Source of the DNA: Chthoniobacteraceae bacterium
GTDB taxonomy: Bacteria > Verrucomicrobiota > Verrucomicrobiia > Chthoniobacterales > Chthoniobacteraceae
DNA: 30,632 nucleotides
Direction of reading: 5' to 3'
NCBI GenBank assembly: GCA_041751075.1
Contig: JBGSYE010000717.1
Span: 1-30,632, forward strand
Positions 5,226 through 20,771 of the stretch are shown here, piece by piece; position 1 is the stretch's first letter; each line of letters opens with the position of its first letter. The position numbers and the translations under genes are program-made. The notes beneath the pieces are model-generated. The model was not told the origin of the DNA. It saw only the letters and a program-made list of their open reading frames with translations, and made no database searches.

Positions 5226-5241
5226 TGGGATGGAGTTCGCA

Positions 5242-6285
5242 ATGGCCAAAACTCCCACTTCAGTCATCGGCGTGGATCTCGGTCGCTACTCGCTCAAGTC
5301 CGTACGGCTCCAGCGAAAGGGCGGCGACCGGGTCGCAATCACGCATTTCGCTTCCCAGGTTCTCAAAGAGCCCGCCACGGATGCGGACAAGCTCGCGCAG
5401 CAACTGAAACTGCTGCTCAAGGAGATGGGCGGCGCCGCCAAGACGTGCGCCGTCGCCGTCTCCAGCCCCGATGCGCTCCTTCGCATCATCGAACAACCGG
5501 AGACGCCGGTGGAGTTGCTGCGGGATGCGCTCCGCTTGAACGGCATCGCGCTGCTCAATCAGGATTGCAAAGAATTCGTGCTCGATTGCGACAAGATCGA
5601 GGCCGGCGGCGATCCTGCGACCGCTGAGAAAGGGAAGTCCGGCCCGCGGCGGTATCTCGTCGGCGGCCTGCCCCGCGTGCAGGTGAACGAGATTGGCAGC
5701 GCTTTTGAGAAGAACACCGCGCCGATGAGCGTGATGCAGCTCGCCCCGATCTGCAGCTTCAACGCATTCGAGTTCGCCCACCCGGAAATCTTCAACAACA
5801 ACGCCTTCTTCCTCGTCGATATCGGCCACACCAACTCCACGATGATGGTCGGGGTAAAGCGGGAACTGGTGCTGGTGCGGACGATCGAATTTGGCGGCAG
5901 CGCGCTCACCGAGGCGTTGATCGGCCTGACCGATGAACCGCGCGAGGCGGTCTTCAGCGCGCTGGATCATGAAGACGAAGTAATGGTCGAATATACCCGC
6001 GTCGCCCTGAATGCGCTGGTGCGGGAGATCCAAAGCTCCCTCGGCTTCCTCGAACATCAGCGCGATCAGCGGATCGAGCGCATCCACGTCTCCGGCGGCC
6101 CGGCCAAGTCGCGGACCCTGCTCAAGGTGATGAGTGAGGAACTCGGTCTGCCTTGCGAATCGTGGACCGCGGTGGGCAAATGCGAGAACGGCGTCCAGGG
6201 CAGCCGCAAGACGAATCTCGAAAGCGAGGCGATGGATCTGAACGTCGCGTGTGGAGCGGCAGCACAACTTTTGAAAGCAAACTGA
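5242..6285 (+). CDS. pilM: Type IV pilus assembly PilM-like actin-fold protein
   Basis: VIGVDLGRYSLKSV phosphate-1 motif, FFLVDIGHTNS phosphate-2 motif, LVRTIEFGG, EIQSSLGF, IHVSGG. The start may be 5230 or 5242. Confidence 0.8.
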   Translation: MAKTPTSVIGVDLGRYSLKSVRLQRKGGDRVAITHFASQVLKEPATDADKLAQQLKLLLKEMGGAAKTCAVAVSSPDALLRIIEQPETPVELLRDALRLNGIALLNQDCKEFVLDCDKIEAGGDPATAEKGKSGPRRYLVGGLPRVQVNEIGSAFEKNTAPMSVMQLAPICSFNAFEFAHPEIFNNNAFFLVDIGHTNSTMMVGVKRELVLVRTIEFGGSALTEALIGLTDEPREAVFSALDHEDEVMVEYTRVALNALVREIQSSLGFLEHQRDQRIERIHVSGGPAKSRTLLKVMSEELGLPCESWTAVGKCENGVQGSRKTNLESEAMDLNVACGAAAQLLKAN

Positions 6286-6288
6286 GCC

Positions 6289-6933
6289 ATGTCACTCCGA
6301 CTCAATCTCTACCACGAAGTCCAAAAGCAGGCGGCGCTGAAGCGGCGCGATCCGCTCAAGCTCTCGCTCTACGGCATGGGTGCGATCGCCGTGTGCATGG
6401 CCGGCTACTATTTCCTCCAGCTCGGGAAATCTCATGGCCTGAACTCCGAACTCGACCGGTTGAAGGCGGAGCACTCCAAACTCGACCCCGAGGCCAAGAC
6501 CGCGCTGAAGCGGGAGGAGGAATTGGCCGCGAAGATCAAAATGAACGAACTCATCGAGCGCCGCATCGAGGAGCGCCTCTACTGGGCGCCCTTGCTCGAG
6601 CAACTCGTGGGCGTCGTGCCCCGCGAAGTGCAGCTCATCAAAATCAGCGGCGAGATCGAGTCCGAGATCACGAAGAAATGTACGCTGACCATCAACGGCA
6701 TTTCCGCCGGGACCGACGCACGCGGCATTGCCGAGGAGTTGCGCATCGCCGTCGCCGAGCGACTCGGGACGAAGTATCGCAATGTGACCGCGAAATTCCG
6801 CTCTCTCGATGACGGCAGCGAACCAGTGGCTCTCGAAGGCAAACAGCTCCCGACCGCGGCATTCGTCATCGCCGTGGATCTCACCTGGGGCGGCGAAGCA
6901 CTCGCCGCCGCCGCACCCCGTCGGAAACGCTAA
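6289..6933 (+). CDS. PilN-like inner-membrane alignment protein
   Basis: N-terminal RLNL motif (PilM-binding INLL-like), a single TM helix, a coiled coil, then a ferredoxin-like tail (WAPLLEQLVGVVPREVQLIKI...LTINGIS). Directly follows pilM. Confidence 0.7.
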   Translation: MSLRLNLYHEVQKQAALKRRDPLKLSLYGMGAIAVCMAGYYFLQLGKSHGLNSELDRLKAEHSKLDPEAKTALKREEELAAKIKMNELIERRIEERLYWAPLLEQLVGVVPREVQLIKISGEIESEITKKCTLTINGISAGTDARGIAEELRIAVAERLGTKYRNVTAKFRSLDDGSEPVALEGKQLPTAAFVIAVDLTWGGEALAAAAPRRKR

Positions 6934-6944
6934 CTCTCTCACGC

Positions 6945-7496
6945 ATGAAACTCGGCAAAGAAGAAATCCAGAAACTCGCGCTCGGCATCCTGCTGCTGAT
7001 CGGCGTGGTGTACAGCTACTTCGACATGCTCCTCTTTCCGGAGCTGAAGAAGCAGGACGCGGTCGCCAAGAACATCGCCTCGCTCTCGCCTGAGATTAAA
7101 AAGGCGCAAGAGCAGATCAAACGCGCGCAGGATCTCGAACAGTCCGCTCCTGGGAAGACGCAGGTCGTGCCGCAAGTCGAGGCCATGATCCCCGACGGCG
7201 CGCCCGTTGCCTGGTTTCCGCCCCGGATCAGCGAGCTTTTCAAACGTGAGGGTATCGACAAGGTGGCGGCGAAGCTGAACAACGAGACTGCCGAGAAGGA
7301 TCTGCCGGGATTCCGCCGGATCGCGTGGACGATCGATTTCCCAAAGGTGGATTTCATCGGCTATGCACGCGCGCTCTCGACGCTTGAGAACGACGAGCCG
7401 CTCGTCGCGGTGACGAGTCTCTCCATCGAGCCGAGCGTGGACGACGTGGAAACGCAGCGCGCCCTCATCACCGTCAACAACCTCGTCAAACAATGA
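6945..7496 (+). CDS. PilO/GspM-like protein
   Basis: N-terminal TM helix, coiled coil, then FPKVDFIGYARALSTLENDEPLVAVTSLSIEP; third gene after pilM. Confidence 0.7.
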   Translation: MKLGKEEIQKLALGILLLIGVVYSYFDMLLFPELKKQDAVAKNIASLSPEIKKAQEQIKRAQDLEQSAPGKTQVVPQVEAMIPDGAPVAWFPPRISELFKREGIDKVAAKLNNETAEKDLPGFRRIAWTIDFPKVDFIGYARALSTLENDEPLVAVTSLSIEPSVDDVETQRALITVNNLVKQ

Positions 7497-7993
7497 TCAC
7501 GAAACTCACCACCATCGCTGTCGCTGCCCTGCTGCCTTTTGCTGTCCTCGCCGAAGAGCCGGCTCCGAAGACCCCAGGTTACGAGTTGAAGAATCGTTCG
7601 TCGTTCACTGCGGCGGATGACACCCGCGCACCCTTTTGGCCGATCGGATGGAGCCGACGCGTGACGCAGGCCCCACCTACCGCGGCTGCGCCTGCGGTGG
7701 TGAAAAGCACGATCGATCCGAATCACTACAAGATCACCAGCATCCTGCTCGGCTCACCATCGCTCGCCGTCATCAATGGCCGCGCCTACGAGGAAGGCGA
7801 GTATCTCAAGACTCCGCGATCGAAAGATGCCGCACCTGCCGGTCAAGTCGCGCCACTTCGGATTCGGGTGCAGCAGATCACCGACAGTGCGGTGATCCTC
7901 CAGCACGCCGAGCAGATGGTCACCGTGCCCTTCAGTCGTCCGGGCCTGGCGGCCAAGGGGCCCGCGCGCGATCTCCTGCTCGAAGATCGCTGA
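7493..7993 (+). CDS. PilP/GspC-HR-like exported protein (no lipobox)
   Basis: ATGA overlap with the pilO-like gene; signal peptide ending AVLA; RAPFWP (compare PilP RDPF.P); ITSILLG..LAVING..Y..GE and IRVQQITDSAVIL beta-domain. Confidence 0.55.
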   Translation: MITKLTTIAVAALLPFAVLAEEPAPKTPGYELKNRSSFTAADDTRAPFWPIGWSRRVTQAPPTAAAPAVVKSTIDPNHYKITSILLGSPSLAVINGRAYEEGEYLKTPRSKDAAPAGQVAPLRIRVQQITDSAVILQHAEQMVTVPFSRPGLAAKGPARDLLLEDR

Positions 7994-16676: not shown

Positions 16677-17156
16677 CTATTCCTTCCGCTGAAAGAGCGA
16701 CTGGACGTTCGTCGCGTCGAGATCGCTGAGGTCGAGGCTCAAGGCGCCATCGCGCGCCGCTGCAATTTGGATCCGTTCGTTGAGCGCACGCGCCGCGGGA
16801 GCGGCAAAGTATTTCATCGAGCCCACCGTCACATGAGTGGGGAAGACCAGCACGAGCAGCGAGTTTTCATCCACGTTCAGCATCAGCGTGGAGAAATTCT
16901 CCCCTTGCTGGTACATGCTCGCGAAGTTCGACTCGCCGACCAGCGAAGCCATGAACTGCACGGCGTTGTAAGCATTCGAGCCGAGGGTGGCGAAGGTCGT
17001 GGTATCGACCTGCCCCGTGCCGCCAGCCTCGTGGATGAGGTAGCCGGCTTTTTCCACGAGGAGCGCGAGGCTGGCCTCGCTGCGTTCGAGCAGCTCGCGC
17101 AGCAGCGCATCGACGTGATCCACGTCTTCCTGATTGAGTTGAGGAAACTGGCCCAT
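16677..17156 (-). CDS. mglB: MglB-like roadblock/LC7 protein (GAP for MglA)
   Basis: LLVEKAGYLIHEAG, DTTTFATL, LVGESNF...QGENFS and a C-terminal helix LSDLDATNVQSLF. Co-linear with Myxococcus MglB as I recall it, and adjacent to mglA. Confidence 0.9.
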   Translation of the reverse strand: MGQFPQLNQEDVDHVDALLRELLERSEASLALLVEKAGYLIHEAGGTGQVDTTTFATLGSNAYNAVQFMASLVGESNFASMYQQGENFSTLMLNVDENSLLVLVFPTHVTVGSMKYFAAPAARALNERIQIAAARDGALSLDLSDLDATNVQSLFQRKE

Positions 17157-17168
17157 GATGGCTCGGGG

Positions 17169-17780
17169 TTACTTCCGGACGCCGTCGTTGAGGAACTTAT
17201 TGAGCAACATCCGCGTGATCATGTTCAGCGTCTCGAACACGCCCTCAGTCTTGCTCGCCGCAGCTTCAAACGAGGGCATCTGGGTCTCGCGATTGTTCAG
17301 CACGTACTCGAGATACTCCACCGGCGCGACGTCGGGGAGGTCGCGCTTGTTGTACTGCATCACGCACGGGATGTCCTCGAAGTTGATGTTCAGCGACTTC
17401 AGATTGTCCTGCAGGTGCTGGAAGGTCTCTATGTTCTCCTCCATCTTTTCGTAGCGGCTGTCGGCGACGAAAACGATGCCGTCCACTCCGCGGAGCACGA
17501 TCTGGCGTGTCGCGTTGTAGATCACCTGACCGGGCACGGTGAAGAGCGCGAACTTGGTCTTGAAACCTTTGATCGCGACCGCTTCGAGCGGGAAGAAATC
17601 GAAGAACAGCGTGCGGTCGCTCGAGGTTGCGAGCGAGGTCAGCTTGCCCTTGGCGTCCTGATTCGGCACCTGCACGTTCGCGTGCACCTGTTCGAGGTTG
17701 GTCGTCTTTCCGCTCTTGGCAGGACCGTAATAGACGATCTTTACCTGCAGCTCTTTGGTGGCTTGGTTGATGATGGCCAT
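17169..17780 (-). CDS. mglA: MglA-family small Ras-like GTPase
   Basis: Start MAIINQATKELQVKIVYYGPAKSGKTTNL (G1), DRTLFFDF (intrinsic Arg finger), TVPGQ (G3, catalytic Gln), LRGVDGIVFVADS, QYNKRDL (G4). Confidence 0.96.
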   Translation of the reverse strand: MAIINQATKELQVKIVYYGPAKSGKTTNLEQVHANVQVPNQDAKGKLTSLATSSDRTLFFDFFPLEAVAIKGFKTKFALFTVPGQVIYNATRQIVLRGVDGIVFVADSRYEKMEENIETFQHLQDNLKSLNINFEDIPCVMQYNKRDLPDVAPVEYLEYVLNNRETQMPSFEAAASKTEGVFETLNMITRMLLNKFLNDGVRK

Positions 17781-17791
17781 GGGCGTATGGA

Positions 17792-19540
17792 TTACTTTTG
17801 GACTTGGCGGGAGAGTTCCGATGCGACGAGGCGCAGCGCGTTCCAGGGGAGTGACGCGCCGGGCTTTCCGAGCACGGCGAGATAGACGCTGCCGAGGCGG
17901 TAGATGAGGCAGTGCGCGCCGCGGGTGGTGAAGAGGAGATCGTCCACCTCGCCGAGTTTCATCTCGCCGGCGTATTGATTGAGGCGGGTGAAAATCTGGG
18001 GCAGGAATGCGGAGACGGTCTCGGCGTTCACACCGTCGGGCAGTGCGTGCGCGACTTGGAAGCCTTCCTGCAGCGCGACGACCGCGCCGGCGACTCCGGG
18101 GAGCTTCACCACTGCATTGACGAGCGCTGCGGGAGTCCAATCCTTCTTGCCGGGCTCGCCCAATACGTCACCGACGGACTGCGTGGCTGCCGGTTCGGCG
18201 GGAGTCTCGACAGGAGCGTCCGCCGTGGCAGCGGCAGTGACTGGAGACTCGATCTTCGCATCGCTGGCTTCAGCCGTGGTTTCGGCGGCTTCCGGTGCCT
18301 CGCTGGCTTTCTCCACCGCGGCAGGTTCGCCCGGAGTTTCGACCGGCGCGGGAATCGTGGCGACTTCGTCCGCGGGAGCTTTCACCTCCTCGATGATCGC
18401 GGCGGGAGTCTCTTCCGCTGACTCTGGCTTCGCTTCGATGTGCTCTGCCACGGGAGGCGCTTCAGCGGCCGGCGGTTCAGGCGCGACGAGTGGCGCCGTG
18501 GGTTCGACTTCCGCCTTCCGGCGCGGAGTCCCCCCGGAGAAGAGCGCAGGGATCGTGTCATCGACCGCGACGCTCTTGCGAGGAGCGGACGGAGTCTTCG
18601 TCGAAGCCATGAATGCGGGAGCCACTACCTTCAGCGGCAGCACCAGCGCGGTTTCGGGGTCGATTGCGGTATTGCCTGGAGGCGGCGTGAGCCAGCCGCA
18701 GAGTTGTTTCCAAGTGCAGGAGATTTTTCCCCGGGCAAGTCCCGGCGCGATGAAGCTGTGAGGAATCGTAACGCTTGTCGCTGCGTCGAGTGCCGCGAGT
18801 TCGCTGGTGACCGTCTCGGGCCAGCCGTCGGAGAGCTTCGCGAGCGGCAGGAGCAGCGTTGCTTCGCTGGATGCCGCCTTGGCGGCGATTGGCGCCGGAG
18901 CGGCGGGTTTGGGCGGCTTCGGAGCCGGAGCAGTCTTCGCCGCGGCGAGGTTTAGCTCGCTGGGTGGAGCCACGACGCGCATCGCGCTGGGCGCTTGCTC
19001 CGCCGCGGGCGGCGCATCCTCGCTCGGGGCGGATGCCGCGATGGGCGCGACCGGCTTGGTTTCCTTGCGACTGTTGAAGACGGGGAGTTCGAGTTCTTCG
19101 TCCGCGAGATCGACGTTGCGTTGATCGGTCCTGCGCTTGAGAGCCGTCGGCTTCACATGCTTGAAGACTTCCGCGAGCGGCACCTCGACCATCCGCTTGT
19201 CACCGGCTGGCAGCGGCTTGAAGAGTCCCGGCGGCGCCTGTCGATGGAGCGAGGCGAGCGACATGCGCACGACGCCCGCCGGCAATTGCTTCACGATCGT
19301 CTGAATGGGCAGGACGACCGTGGCGGAGTCGTCGGGAGCACTGATGAGCAGCGCGCGGATGTCCTCGGGAAATTTGGCTACGATGTTTTTGAGCGACAAC
19401 TTCGCGACCTCGACCTTGGCCATCTGGATCGCCGATTCGAACTGCATCTGCGCTGGCGAAGGCGCGGATGGAGAGGGGGCCAGTGGGCCATCCGTTTTTT
19501 TCGCGGTCTTGCCGAAGATTTTTTTGAAGAGGGTAAGCAT
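17792..19540 (-). CDS. 582-aa multidomain protein: amphipathic N-terminus, two copies of an unrecognised ~105-aa domain, Pro/Ala/Glu linkers, C-terminal roadblock/LC7 domain
   Basis: Start MLTLFKKIFGK. C-terminal LPGVAGAVVALQEGFQVA...AFLPQIF...MKLGEVDDLLF...YLAVL is a roadblock pattern. Stop is 11 nt before mglA. Confidence 0.85.
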   Translation of the reverse strand: MLTLFKKIFGKTAKKTDGPLAPSPSAPSPAQMQFESAIQMAKVEVAKLSLKNIVAKFPEDIRALLISAPDDSATVVLPIQTIVKQLPAGVVRMSLASLHRQAPPGLFKPLPAGDKRMVEVPLAEVFKHVKPTALKRRTDQRNVDLADEELELPVFNSRKETKPVAPIAASAPSEDAPPAAEQAPSAMRVVAPPSELNLAAAKTAPAPKPPKPAAPAPIAAKAASSEATLLLPLAKLSDGWPETVTSELAALDAATSVTIPHSFIAPGLARGKISCTWKQLCGWLTPPPGNTAIDPETALVLPLKVVAPAFMASTKTPSAPRKSVAVDDTIPALFSGGTPRRKAEVEPTAPLVAPEPPAAEAPPVAEHIEAKPESAEETPAAIIEEVKAPADEVATIPAPVETPGEPAAVEKASEAPEAAETTAEASDAKIESPVTAAATADAPVETPAEPAATQSVGDVLGEPGKKDWTPAALVNAVVKLPGVAGAVVALQEGFQVAHALPDGVNAETVSAFLPQIFTRLNQYAGEMKLGEVDDLLFTTRGAHCLIYRLGSVYLAVLGKPGASLPWNALRLVASELSRQVQK

Positions 19541-19566
19541 GCGGTCGCGGTTTGAGCGCCGTGACA

Positions 19567-19582
19567 AGCAGTCGCGATGCCA
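19567..19582 (-). promoter_or_regulatory. Candidate sigma54 promoter of the roadblock-protein/mglA/mglB operon
   Basis: The minus strand reads TGGCATCGCGACTGCT (GG-N10-GC), ending 27 nt before ATG 19540. Confidence 0.45.
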
Positions 19583-19715
19583 TTGCGGTGCCGGCGGATT
19601 TTCTCCCGGCAGATCCTGCCGCTGGCCTGTGTCGTGCTTTTGCGGTGGAGGCGTTCCCGATCGTCGGAAATGCCGAACCGTCCGCAAACCCTCTCGGAAT
19701 CAAGATTCACAGCCC

Positions 19716-20771
19716 ATGCCAGCCCGCCACAAAATCCTGATCCTCGACGATGAACACGACATCCTCGAGATCTACCAGGAGATCCTCGCCCGCATCCCGA
19801 GCCAGCCGGAGATCCACACGGCGGACTCCGGCCCACGGGCGCTGGCGCTACTCGAGAGCGAGGCTTTCAATCTCCTGCTCGTCGATCTGCGGATGCCGGC
19901 GATGGATGGCTTTCAGGTACTCACGATCGTCCGCCGCCGGTTCCCCACGCTGCGCGTGGTGGTGATGACCTCGGCGCAGGACGAGCAATTCCGCGCCCGG
20001 GCCTATGCGATGGGCATCGACCTGTACATGGAGAAGCCGAAGACGGGGAAGGAGATCATCAACTTCGTCGATTGCATCGAGTCGATGCTCGAGCGGGAAG
20101 TGCATGGCGGCTTCCGCGGCGTGCAGAGCAAGACGCTCATGGACATCATCCAGCTCGAGTGCCTCACGCAGAGCTCGTCGATGTTGAAGATCGCGAGCGG
20201 ACCGGGTGAAGGGTGCATCTGGTTTCAAAAGGGCGAGATCATCGACGCGGCGACCGGCGAAGTGATGGGGCGCGAGGCCTTCCTCGAGATGCTGCGCTGG
20301 AAATCCGGTTCCTTCGAGATTCTGCCCTGCGACATGCCGCGGCCCCGGACGATCTTTGTGAGCTACGAGAGCCTGCTCATGGAGACGGCACAGACCATCG
20401 ACGAGAGCACCGCCGAGGAGCCGGCCGCCGGCGAAGGCGACACGAGTCCGCTGGCGGGCTTCTCACGGTACAAAGGCGTGCAGTTCGTCGTCGCGGTGCA
20501 GAGCGGCGAGGAGATGAAATTCGACCACTGGGCTGCGGAGTATCCCGAACGCACCGCTGCGTGGATCCGCGACACCACGCAGACCTTTCAGGCGCTCGGC
20601 GACCGGCTCGAAGCCGGGCAACTCGAGATGATCGAAGCTATCGGCACGCAGCGCCACGTCGGACTCCTCTGCGATGGTGAAAACGCCCTGGGCATCGGCT
20701 TCACCCGATCGGCCACCCTCACCCACATCCGCGAAACCATGAAGCAAATCGAAGCCAAATGGGCCTCCTGA
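19716..20771 (+). CDS. Response regulator: REC + DUF4388 (PatA_N-like) + C-terminal roadblock-like domain
   Basis: ILILDDE, D57 (VDLRMP), T85, K107 (EKP); GFRGVQSKTLMDIIQL...G.IWFQKGEIIDA..GE..GREAF.EML.W..GSF (DUF4388); tail KGVQFVVAV...LGDRLEAGQLEMIE. Confidence 0.88.
   Translation: MPARHKILILDDEHDILEIYQEILARIPSQPEIHTADSGPRALALLESEAFNLLLVDLRMPAMDGFQVLTIVRRRFPTLRVVVMTSAQDEQFRARAYAMGIDLYMEKPKTGKEIINFVDCIESMLEREVHGGFRGVQSKTLMDIIQLECLTQSSSMLKIASGPGEGCIWFQKGEIIDAATGEVMGREAFLEMLRWKSGSFEILPCDMPRPRTIFVSYESLLMETAQTIDESTAEEPAAGEGDTSPLAGFSRYKGVQFVVAVQSGEEMKFDHWAAEYPERTAAWIRDTTQTFQALGDRLEAGQLEMIEAIGTQRHVGLLCDGENALGIGFTRSATLTHIRETMKQIEAKWAS

Follow-up and report, generated by a model that had tools for sequence, protein, structure and literature searches.

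In Myxococcus, RomR and MglC act for MglB, the GTPase-activating protein (GAP) of the MglA/MglB polarity switch, and MglC binds MglB through an FDI surface and RomR through a KRR surface (PMC10329633). The MglA effectors SgmX and SopA recruit PilB in M. xanthus (PMC11580455). How the switch is attached to a site in the cell is still a question in the field, Myxococcus included, for which polar binding by RomR has yet to be explained. A 2014 survey recorded MglA in Verrucomicrobia with an occasional PATAN neighborhood, and the searched passages of that survey mention no fused or additional domains (PMC4316618). Here we describe a minus-strand gene in a 30,632-nucleotide stretch of DNA from a Chthoniobacteraceae bacterium (assembly GCA_041751075.1, contig JBGSYE010000717.1, positions 1 to 30,632; hereafter the window) that heads an operon with mglA and mglB. 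Its product, which is termed the scaffold protein after its proposed role, consists of a short basic N-terminal motif, two copies of a previously undescribed domain, two disordered linkers and a C-terminal Roadblock domain, and the MglA/MglB module in these bacteria probably carries a new domain. No paper on this architecture was found; what the literature yielded on the two switch proteins, the phylum, roadblock and PATAN domains and amphipathic helices was confined to Myxococcus, Asgard and survey papers. As a single polypeptide, the scaffold protein would serve MglB in the way that RomR and MglC do in Myxococcus.

The scaffold protein resembles MglC in being an extra Roadblock protein of the MglA/MglB module that is distinct from MglB, the GAP that acts on MglA-GTP in a 2:1 complex, and Roadblock-to-Roadblock docking and help in placing the switch would be expected of it. 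However, MglC is a single domain of ~120 amino acids that is not encoded with mglBA, whereas the scaffold protein has three further parts and its gene comes first in the operon. Like RomR, it is a polarity-module protein with an extended disordered region rich in Pro, Ala and Glu, and it may similarly be the root of recruitment. The likeness is confined to linker composition: RomR possesses an N-terminal receiver domain, a Pro-rich linker and a Glu-rich C-terminus but neither a Roadblock domain nor a terminal amphipathic motif, whereas the scaffold protein gave no Response_reg match in a Pfam scan and has no homology to RomR. Similarly, there was no PopZ family match in the Pfam scan (E up to 1), and the C-terminus of the scaffold protein is a Roadblock domain and not the helical oligomerization region of PopZ. 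The description of the protein in the earlier note on this DNA as a RomR/PopZ-like hub therefore does not hold as homology and is a functional analogy at most, but the layout on which the scaffold reading was based, namely folded heads, variable acidic disordered tethers and a Roadblock end, was borne out. SopA of M. xanthus also is linked to MglA and the type IV pilus and has two folded regions of unknown fold around a disordered region, but it lacks a Roadblock domain, and reports of it are limited to Myxococcales (PMC11580455).

Two other comparisons concern the putative anchor. Ragulator, which comprises LAMTOR1 and the Roadblock proteins LAMTOR2-5, provides an analogy only, in that a small GTPase is kept at a membrane by a Roadblock platform, itself secured through an N-terminal membrane anchor and a flexible chain. 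Ragulator chains (6b9x, 6u62 and 5x6v) were among the fold matches of the scaffold Roadblock domain. However, the Ragulator anchor is lipidated, whereas an amphipathic helix would serve here; anchor and Roadblock domain are parts of one polypeptide in the scaffold protein, and no homology beyond the Roadblock fold is claimed. The terminal membrane-targeting helices of MinD, FtsA and Escherichia coli MreB, the last of which begins with the similar-looking MLKKFRGMF, share with the putative helix of the scaffold motif the nature of a short, basic, hydrophobic terminal element of a cytoplasmic protein, a likeness that is compositional only.

Linkage of the domain to mglA

The association of the repeated domain with mglA is the strongest result of the analysis. 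Synteny was sampled in 16-kb regions around domain matches in 20 genomes selected to represent different families of the order as well as other classes; this sample and those for co-occurrence were all taken within the phylum Verrucomicrobiota. The domain-bearing gene directly adjoined mglA in 18 of the 20 loci, in co-directional orientation in 15 and divergently in three, and mglB was next in 15 of the 20. The two exceptions encode a giant protein of 2694 amino acids and a protein of 873 amino acids. Of 201 genomes across the order, 89 contained the domain and 93 contained MglA, in each case representing 44 of 72 genera; these counts take in one unpublished genome (G465) which contributes to no other result. 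The distributions over families all but coincided, with the domain and MglA found in 19/21 and 19/21 genomes, respectively, of family f3, in 21/22 and 22/22 of f66, and in 6/8 and 6/8 of f64. Both were absent from seven families (f2, f4, f6, f62, f67, f69 and f70). Among the genomes with MglA but no domain are several in which mglA borders the end of a contig. The domain was detected in 25 of 401 genomes sampled throughout the phylum, other classes included. Both synteny and co-occurrence with mglA are near-obligate, and the membership of the scaffold protein in the MglA/MglB module, which the earlier note had proposed, is upheld by the operon, by adjacency and by family-by-family co-occurrence.

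Two metagenomic relatives, P0170 with three domain copies and P0218 of different length, lie in comparable surroundings in which a divergent gene for a receiver-PatA_N protein is followed by the scaffold gene and then by a gene for a 200-residue protein. The latter has a faint Arf match in the P0170 locus and no recorded family in the P0218 locus; a gene for a 161-residue Roadblock protein follows it in the former.

These results bear on a whole phylum, in which one protein encoded with mglA and mglB appears to unite anchor, tether and Roadblock adaptor. If this is true, attachment of the switch could be tested with one gene. Culturable relatives such as Chthoniobacter flavus carry the scaffold protein, the homologues in that species being P0061 and B4CVB6.

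Architecture of the scaffold protein

The Roadblock domain that the earlier note placed at residues ~468-582 matched Pfam PF03259 at residues 473-557 (E 3e-6; 27.3 bits against a cut-off of 23) and was modeled as an alpha-beta-alpha sandwich with predicted local distance difference test (pLDDT) values >90. Comparison of residues 463-582 with solved structures in VIA gave Z scores of 17.6 for an Asgard Roadblock (9jue), 16.0 for M. xanthus MglB (6hjm) and 9.7 for MglC (7cy1), so that the match to MglC is weaker than those to MglB and the Asgard protein. The scores for solved Roadblock/MglB chains (17.6, 16.0, 15.8 and 14.8) extended over 110-120 residues. A profile of the domain searched against the Protein Data Bank (PDB) recovered only Asgard Roadblock proteins (E 3.8e-6) and found neither MglB nor MglC (7cy1) at E up to 10. 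Because the profile found neither, and because the BLASTP comparison with the local MglB was not significant (E 0.14), the domain is classed by sequence as a distinct subfamily that is neither MglB nor MglC. Similarly, the scaffold protein had no match in the NCBIfam scan, to MglB or otherwise, whereas the neighboring mglB product matched NF052242, 'GTPase-activating protein MglB' (E 4.7e-15, under the cut-off of that model). By these tests and those for RomR and PopZ above, the scaffold protein is a member of the Roadblock superfamily outside the MglB, MglC, RomR and PopZ families. Mean column identity was highest in the Roadblock domain (76%), followed by copy 1 (68%) and copy 2 (56%) of the repeated domain, and the first value is as expected if the Roadblock domain contacts the highly conserved MglA or MglB.

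The internal repeat had been aligned by eye at residues ~45-155 and ~228-334 in the earlier note, for which a repeat without statistical significance would have refuted the reading. As BLASTP of the two copies against each other found nothing (E 23), that alignment rests on ~21% identity, and the copies were instead compared as profiles. Homologues (49) were aligned and the sub-alignments of copy 1 and copy 2 were matched with hhalign, which yielded Prob 93% and E 3.3e-7 over 103 columns with 21% identity. The score was 43.6, whereas 100 column shuffles of one alignment had a median score of 11.8 and never exceeded 20.8, and a reversed alignment scored 15.7. AlphaFold2, provided with the 49-sequence alignment, modeled both copies (residues 45-135 and 228-315) with pLDDT values >94 and the same succession of strand, two short helices, strand, helix, strand, helix, strand and helix. 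When 1.84 billion cluster representatives were searched with the copy-1 profile, 920 proteins were retrieved at E ≤0.001, and the profile matched mostly two stretches per protein, and three, four or seven in some (range 2 to 7). Thus, the hhalign E value, the shuffle control, the multiple matched stretches and the matching order of predicted elements establish that the duplication is real.

Each copy in turn is built from four strand-helix units. The pattern hydrophobic-x-hydrophobic-[S/P]-L-x-x-hydrophobic-hydrophobic-x-x-L-P occurs four times within one domain, once per unit. The first half of the domain matched the second with E 4.3e-7 and a score of 30.0, whereas 100 column shuffles reached 19.4 at most. 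Comparisons of unit with unit gave E values of 5e-8 to 2.5e-4, which are supporting but not decisive because the unit profiles are very short. The consensus of the ~90-residue core, LxLxxIxxxLP ... QLxxGxVKISFGELRxxAPxGxF ... VxLPLxEIL, followed by RRxxQ+ ... LF, fits both copies. Beyond the cores, a conserved basic tail KRRxDQR...LF extends copy 1 to approximately residue 156 and a conserved tail that ends in ...IPALF extends copy 2 to approximately residue 334.

No known family could be assigned to the repeated domain, in agreement with the earlier note, which had proposed structure searches and a profile survey to examine this point. In the Pfam scan of the scaffold protein (E up to 1) only Robl_LC7 and one chance match were recorded, and a scan of the 49 domain sequences at E up to 10 revealed no recurring family. 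The copy-1 profile gave only chance matches (E 0.3 or worse) with PDB sequences. A separate model of copy 1 (pLDDT 83; ~90 in the core) compared with 48,161 PDB chains in VIA reached a best Z of 2.5, and thus no structural neighbor was found, whereas models without a clear match usually still reach Z 7 to 8 in this comparison. Foldseek with the same model against the PDB gave a best E of 5. In AlphaFold DB clusters and the ESM Atlas the copy-1 model found same-family proteins only, which are mostly from Verrucomicrobiota and many of which are named Roadblock proteins, and an ESM feature search found only unnamed verrucomicrobial clusters with scores <0.9. The domain, which accounts for ~920 clusters when proteins are grouped at 50% identity and is present in 2 to 7 copies in each protein, is a candidate new domain family. 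It also may possess a new fold, which is advanced as a hypothesis because both sides of the AlphaFold DB and ESM Atlas comparisons are predictions.

The folded parts of the 49 homologues are fixed in length and are separated by linkers that vary. Linker 1 is 83 to 175 amino acids long with a median net charge of -7, and linker 2 is 50 to 189 amino acids long with a median of -11. In the scaffold protein itself linker 2 (residues 316-466), which is the Ala/Pro/Glu-rich low-complexity tract described in the earlier note, contains 23% Ala, 16% Pro and 15% Glu and has a net charge of -18. AlphaFold2 assigned pLDDT values <50 to residues 136-227 and 316-455. The median net charges of the other parts are +3 for the N-terminal tail, +6 for domain 1 and -4 for the Roadblock domain; domain 1 has a net charge of +2 to +10 in all 49 homologues and is never negative, and the N-terminal tail likewise is basic throughout this set. 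Amid the variable sequence of linker 1 a motif R-x-[IV]-A-P-P-x-[DE]-[FL] is conserved (here MRVVAPPSEL; 18950-18985 on the minus strand, residues ~186-197). As a separate observation, profilin was among the structures that the scaffold Roadblock fold resembled when solved structures were searched (Z 10-12). Profilins bind proline-rich peptides.

The N-terminal motif MLTLFKKIFGK conforms to the pattern M-[LF]-[ST]-[ILF]-[FL]-K-K-[LI]-F-[GR]-K, which was present in 178 of 223 family proteins of >400 amino acids and was located exactly at residue 1 in 158 of these. The motif was found even in members that match the query profile with E of only ~1e-20, and most family proteins without it appear N-terminally truncated. 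Two short one-domain paralogues in the source genome open with similar motifs, MGLFDLFFKSR and MSFLDRFKRKG. In helical projection M1, L2, L4, F5, I8 and F9 of the 11-mer fall on one face with K6, K7 and K11 opposite. In P0255, a relative of 1465 amino acids (locus L007, 1521-5918, plus strand), approximately four hydrophobic segments that resemble transmembrane (TM) helices replace the motif, and six to seven domain copies are present without a Roadblock domain. The conservation of the motif, its counterparts in the two paralogues, the basic N-terminal third set against acidic linkers and this TM-like region in one relative suggest that the N-terminal helix would bind the membrane.

Proposed role and alternatives

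Our tentative reading, in which we place somewhat less than even confidence, is that the protein is a dedicated membrane-anchored scaffold of the verrucomicrobial MglA/MglB polarity switch. The basic amphipathic N-terminus and the basic domain 1 would hold the protein on the inner face of the cytoplasmic membrane, and the two domain copies would be docking heads for a membrane-proximal partner, most likely a part of the type IV pilus machine or the PATAN response regulator. The long acidic disordered linkers would provide flexible tethers. At their end the Roadblock domain might dimerize and dock onto MglB and/or MglA, and through such physical binding the GTPase switch would be concentrated at a defined membrane site. 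Both the partner of the repeated domain and the choice of MglA or MglB as the contact of the Roadblock domain are conjectural in this scheme. In its favor are the operon, synteny and co-occurrence with mglA, the conserved N-terminal motif and charge pattern, the high conservation of the Roadblock domain, and the links to pilus genes that are set out below. A bolder version, which is doubtful, is that the domain is a new four-unit fold that specifically marks a membrane site such as the pilus base. With anchor and Roadblock domain it would constitute a bacterial counterpart of Ragulator, namely a Roadblock platform on the membrane that positions a Ras-like GTPase, and would replace the RomR/RomX/MglC proteins of Myxococcus in Verrucomicrobiota.

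Several observations weigh against the membrane-anchored scaffold. The helix predicted by AlphaFold at residues 5-9 has weak confidence (pLDDT ~60). The Eisenberg hydrophobic moment of the 11-mer is 0.52, and as 12% of shuffles of the same residues reach this value, amphipathicity alone is unremarkable. The N-terminus accordingly matches the earlier note in being basic, hydrophobic and predicted helical, but is only moderately amphipathic, and motif conservation is the stronger sequence evidence. In family f66, the orthologue has no detectable Roadblock domain and mglB is not the next gene, and Roadblock docking therefore cannot be the whole story. As the scaffold Roadblock domain is unlike those of MglB and MglC by sequence, the precedent of MglC for Roadblock-to-Roadblock docking may not transfer. 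When a complex of the Roadblock dimer with dimeric MglB, MglA and GTP was predicted, the score of 0.23 fell short of the 0.34 mark, which counts neither way.

Three other roles were considered. The protein may be an output adaptor of MglA that is recruited by MglA-GTP and whose repeated domains recruit or activate PilM or PilB, the ATPase of pilus extension, in the manner of SgmX, FrzS and SopA in M. xanthus; the N-terminal motif may still bind the membrane in this case. Links to the pilus suggest such a role: pilM is present in the window and in the gene cluster of P0255, and a one-domain paralogue is encoded directly downstream of pilB in the source genome. Moreover, two to seven domain copies would suit multivalent recruitment, and SopA, which polar PilB requires, consists of two domains around an unstructured middle and has no Foldseek match (PMC11580455). 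In most sampled loci, however, pil genes do not adjoin the mgl operon, the neighbors in family f66 are ExbB, ExbD and TonB-like genes instead, and fusion to a Roadblock domain suggests a place among the regulators (MglB/MglC) and not an effector. We regard this role as unlikely. Alternatively, the protein might be a soluble hub akin to MglC or RomR in which the N-terminal motif has a protein target and not the membrane, possible targets being the Roadblock groove, MglA and the PATAN regulator. The motif is indeed very short with only a moderate hydrophobic moment, and the other conserved linear motifs (RRxDQR...LF and IPALF in the tails and R-x-[IV]-APP-x-[DE]-F in linker 1) indicate that the protein makes use of such elements. 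Roadblock proteins are wrapped by extended peptides, as LAMTOR1 wraps Ragulator, and the Ragulator structures 6b9x and 6ehr are among the Roadblock fold matches. Yet in 158 proteins the motif begins strictly at residue 1, as terminal membrane anchors typically do, approximately four hydrophobic TM-like segments stand in for it in P0255, and the N-terminal tail and domain 1 are consistently basic. A soluble hub appears quite unlikely on this balance.

The remaining alternative is that the Roadblock domain regulates MglA catalytically, be it as another GAP, a RomY-like co-GAP or an exchange factor, with the N-terminal domains serving only in regulation or localization. The fold is nearer to MglB than to MglC (Z 16.0 against 9.7), the domain is extremely conserved, and in some families the scaffold gene precedes mglA without a detectable mglB, all of which would suit catalysis. 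But the operon in the window already contains a canonical mglB, loci that lack mglB are exactly those whose scaffold protein has no recognizable Roadblock domain, and sequence similarity of the Roadblock domain to MglB is absent. A catalytic role is thus improbable, and the membrane-anchored scaffold is preferred.

Gene organization and divergent relatives

The gene proceeds from the ATG at 19540 to a last codon that ends at 17795, in accord with the coordinates of the earlier note (17792-19540, stop codon included), and is on the minus strand (Table 1). The ATG is taken as the start because the same motif opens residue 1 in 158 homologues; a longer frame from a TTG at 19687 was rejected, as homologues begin at MLTLFKK. 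More than 250 homologues were found, the named ones from Chthoniobacter and other Verrucomicrobiota. Their source names are confined to 'roadblock/LC7 domain-containing protein' (NCBI), 'predicted regulator of Ras-like GTPase activity (Roadblock/LC7/MglB family)' (JGI) and 'hypothetical protein'. The order of genes on the minus strand, determined from G+C content at third codon positions (GC3) and Pfam scans, is scaffold gene, mglA, mglB, gatB and a DUF4142 gene. The mglA product is a bona fide MglA, which phmmer matched to the MglA proteins of Thermus (3t12; E 1.1e-59) and M. xanthus (E 2e-57). The segments DRTLFFDF and TVPGQ of this protein are presumably the arginine and glutamine motifs of MglA. 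The source genome is 74% complete and has one mglA and only two Pfam-detectable Roadblock domains, those of the scaffold protein and MglB. The divergent receiver-PATAN gene beside the scaffold gene is an arrangement that is repeated in relatives.

Table 1. Positions of features in the window and, in the last two rows, in related loci.
Feature	Position	Strand	Details
Scaffold gene	17795..19540	minus	582 aa; stop codon 17792-17794; first gene of scaffold-mglA-mglB operon
N-terminal motif MLTLFKKIFGK	19508..19540	minus	Residues 1-11; putative amphipathic membrane-targeting helix
Copy 1 of repeated domain	19136..19408	minus	Residues 45-135; pLDDT 86-96
Linker 1	18860..19135	minus	Residues 136-227; Ala/Pro-rich, disordered; pLDDT <50
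Copy 2 of repeated domain	18596..18859	minus	Residues 228-315; pLDDT 94-96
Linker 2	18143..18595	minus	Residues 316-466; acidic Ala/Pro/Glu-rich disordered region, putative tether
C-terminal Roadblock/LC7 domain	17795..18142	minus	Residues 467-582; most conserved part of scaffold protein
mglA	17169..17780	minus	203 aa; start 11 bases past scaffold stop codon
mglB	16677..17156	minus	159 aa; Roadblock-domain protein; Pfam Robl_LC7 E 6.8e-8
Response regulator gene with PATAN (DUF4388/PatA_N) domain	19716..20771	plus	Divergent from scaffold gene; Pfam Response_reg E 2e-22, DUF4388 E 2e-16
Sigma-54-type -24/-12 element	19567..19582	minus	TGGCATCGCGACTGCT (TGGCAT-N5-CTGCT); 26 bases (19541-19566) between its downstream end and scaffold ATG
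Sigma-54-type elements of same-family loci	L010 8513-8528; L011 7862-7877; L012 8541-8556	minus; plus; minus
f66-type locus	L014 4689-11669	plus	rpoN, 254-aa open reading frame, domain protein (543 aa, no detectable Roadblock), mglA, ExbB, ExbD, TonB-like; no mglB

The sigma-54-type element upstream of the scaffold gene is the sole exact match to TGGCAY-N5-YTGCW in the window, where 0.09 are expected. The same element also is located at the 5' end of the orthologous open frame in all three same-family genomes that were sampled, but was found in none of 16 more distant loci checked. No gene for an enhancer-binding protein was identified within the window. Pfam PilM_2 marks pilM at 5230-6285, which is followed by three small open reading frames without Pfam matches that are possibly pilN, pilO and pilP. 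This segment (5230-7993, plus strand) is 12 kb from the mgl operon.

In the source genome the MGLFDLFFKSR paralogue (L008, G000:C9, 3-647, minus strand) has one domain copy in an open reading frame that runs off the contig end, and is directly downstream of the gene for a PilB-type ATPase with T2SSE and MshEN domains (L008, 580-2352, minus strand). The MSFLDRFKRKG paralogue (L009, G000:C518, 1-711, minus strand) has one weak domain copy (E 1e-4), is cut by the contig end, and is downstream of a gene whose sequence looks like that of an HflX-type GTPase. The gene after P0255 encodes a protein with a match to the DUF2231 predicted membrane domain, below the Pfam cut-off, and a Roadblock domain; the cluster as a whole contains four Roadblock-domain genes, two small GTPases and two PatA_N proteins in addition to pilM. 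The giant protein of 2694 amino acids is encoded by an open frame at L013 746-8827 on the minus strand in a same-family genome without mglA and has one domain copy (E 5e-18). A short protein with the domain (open frames of 221-287 amino acids) is encoded beside a divergent MglA-like GTPase in one genus of this family (G351:C1:2405829-2407117 and G421:C34:50080-51238). This GTPase is 35-42% identical to the local MglA, and the pairing of the domain with a GTPase therefore extends to a paralogous pair.

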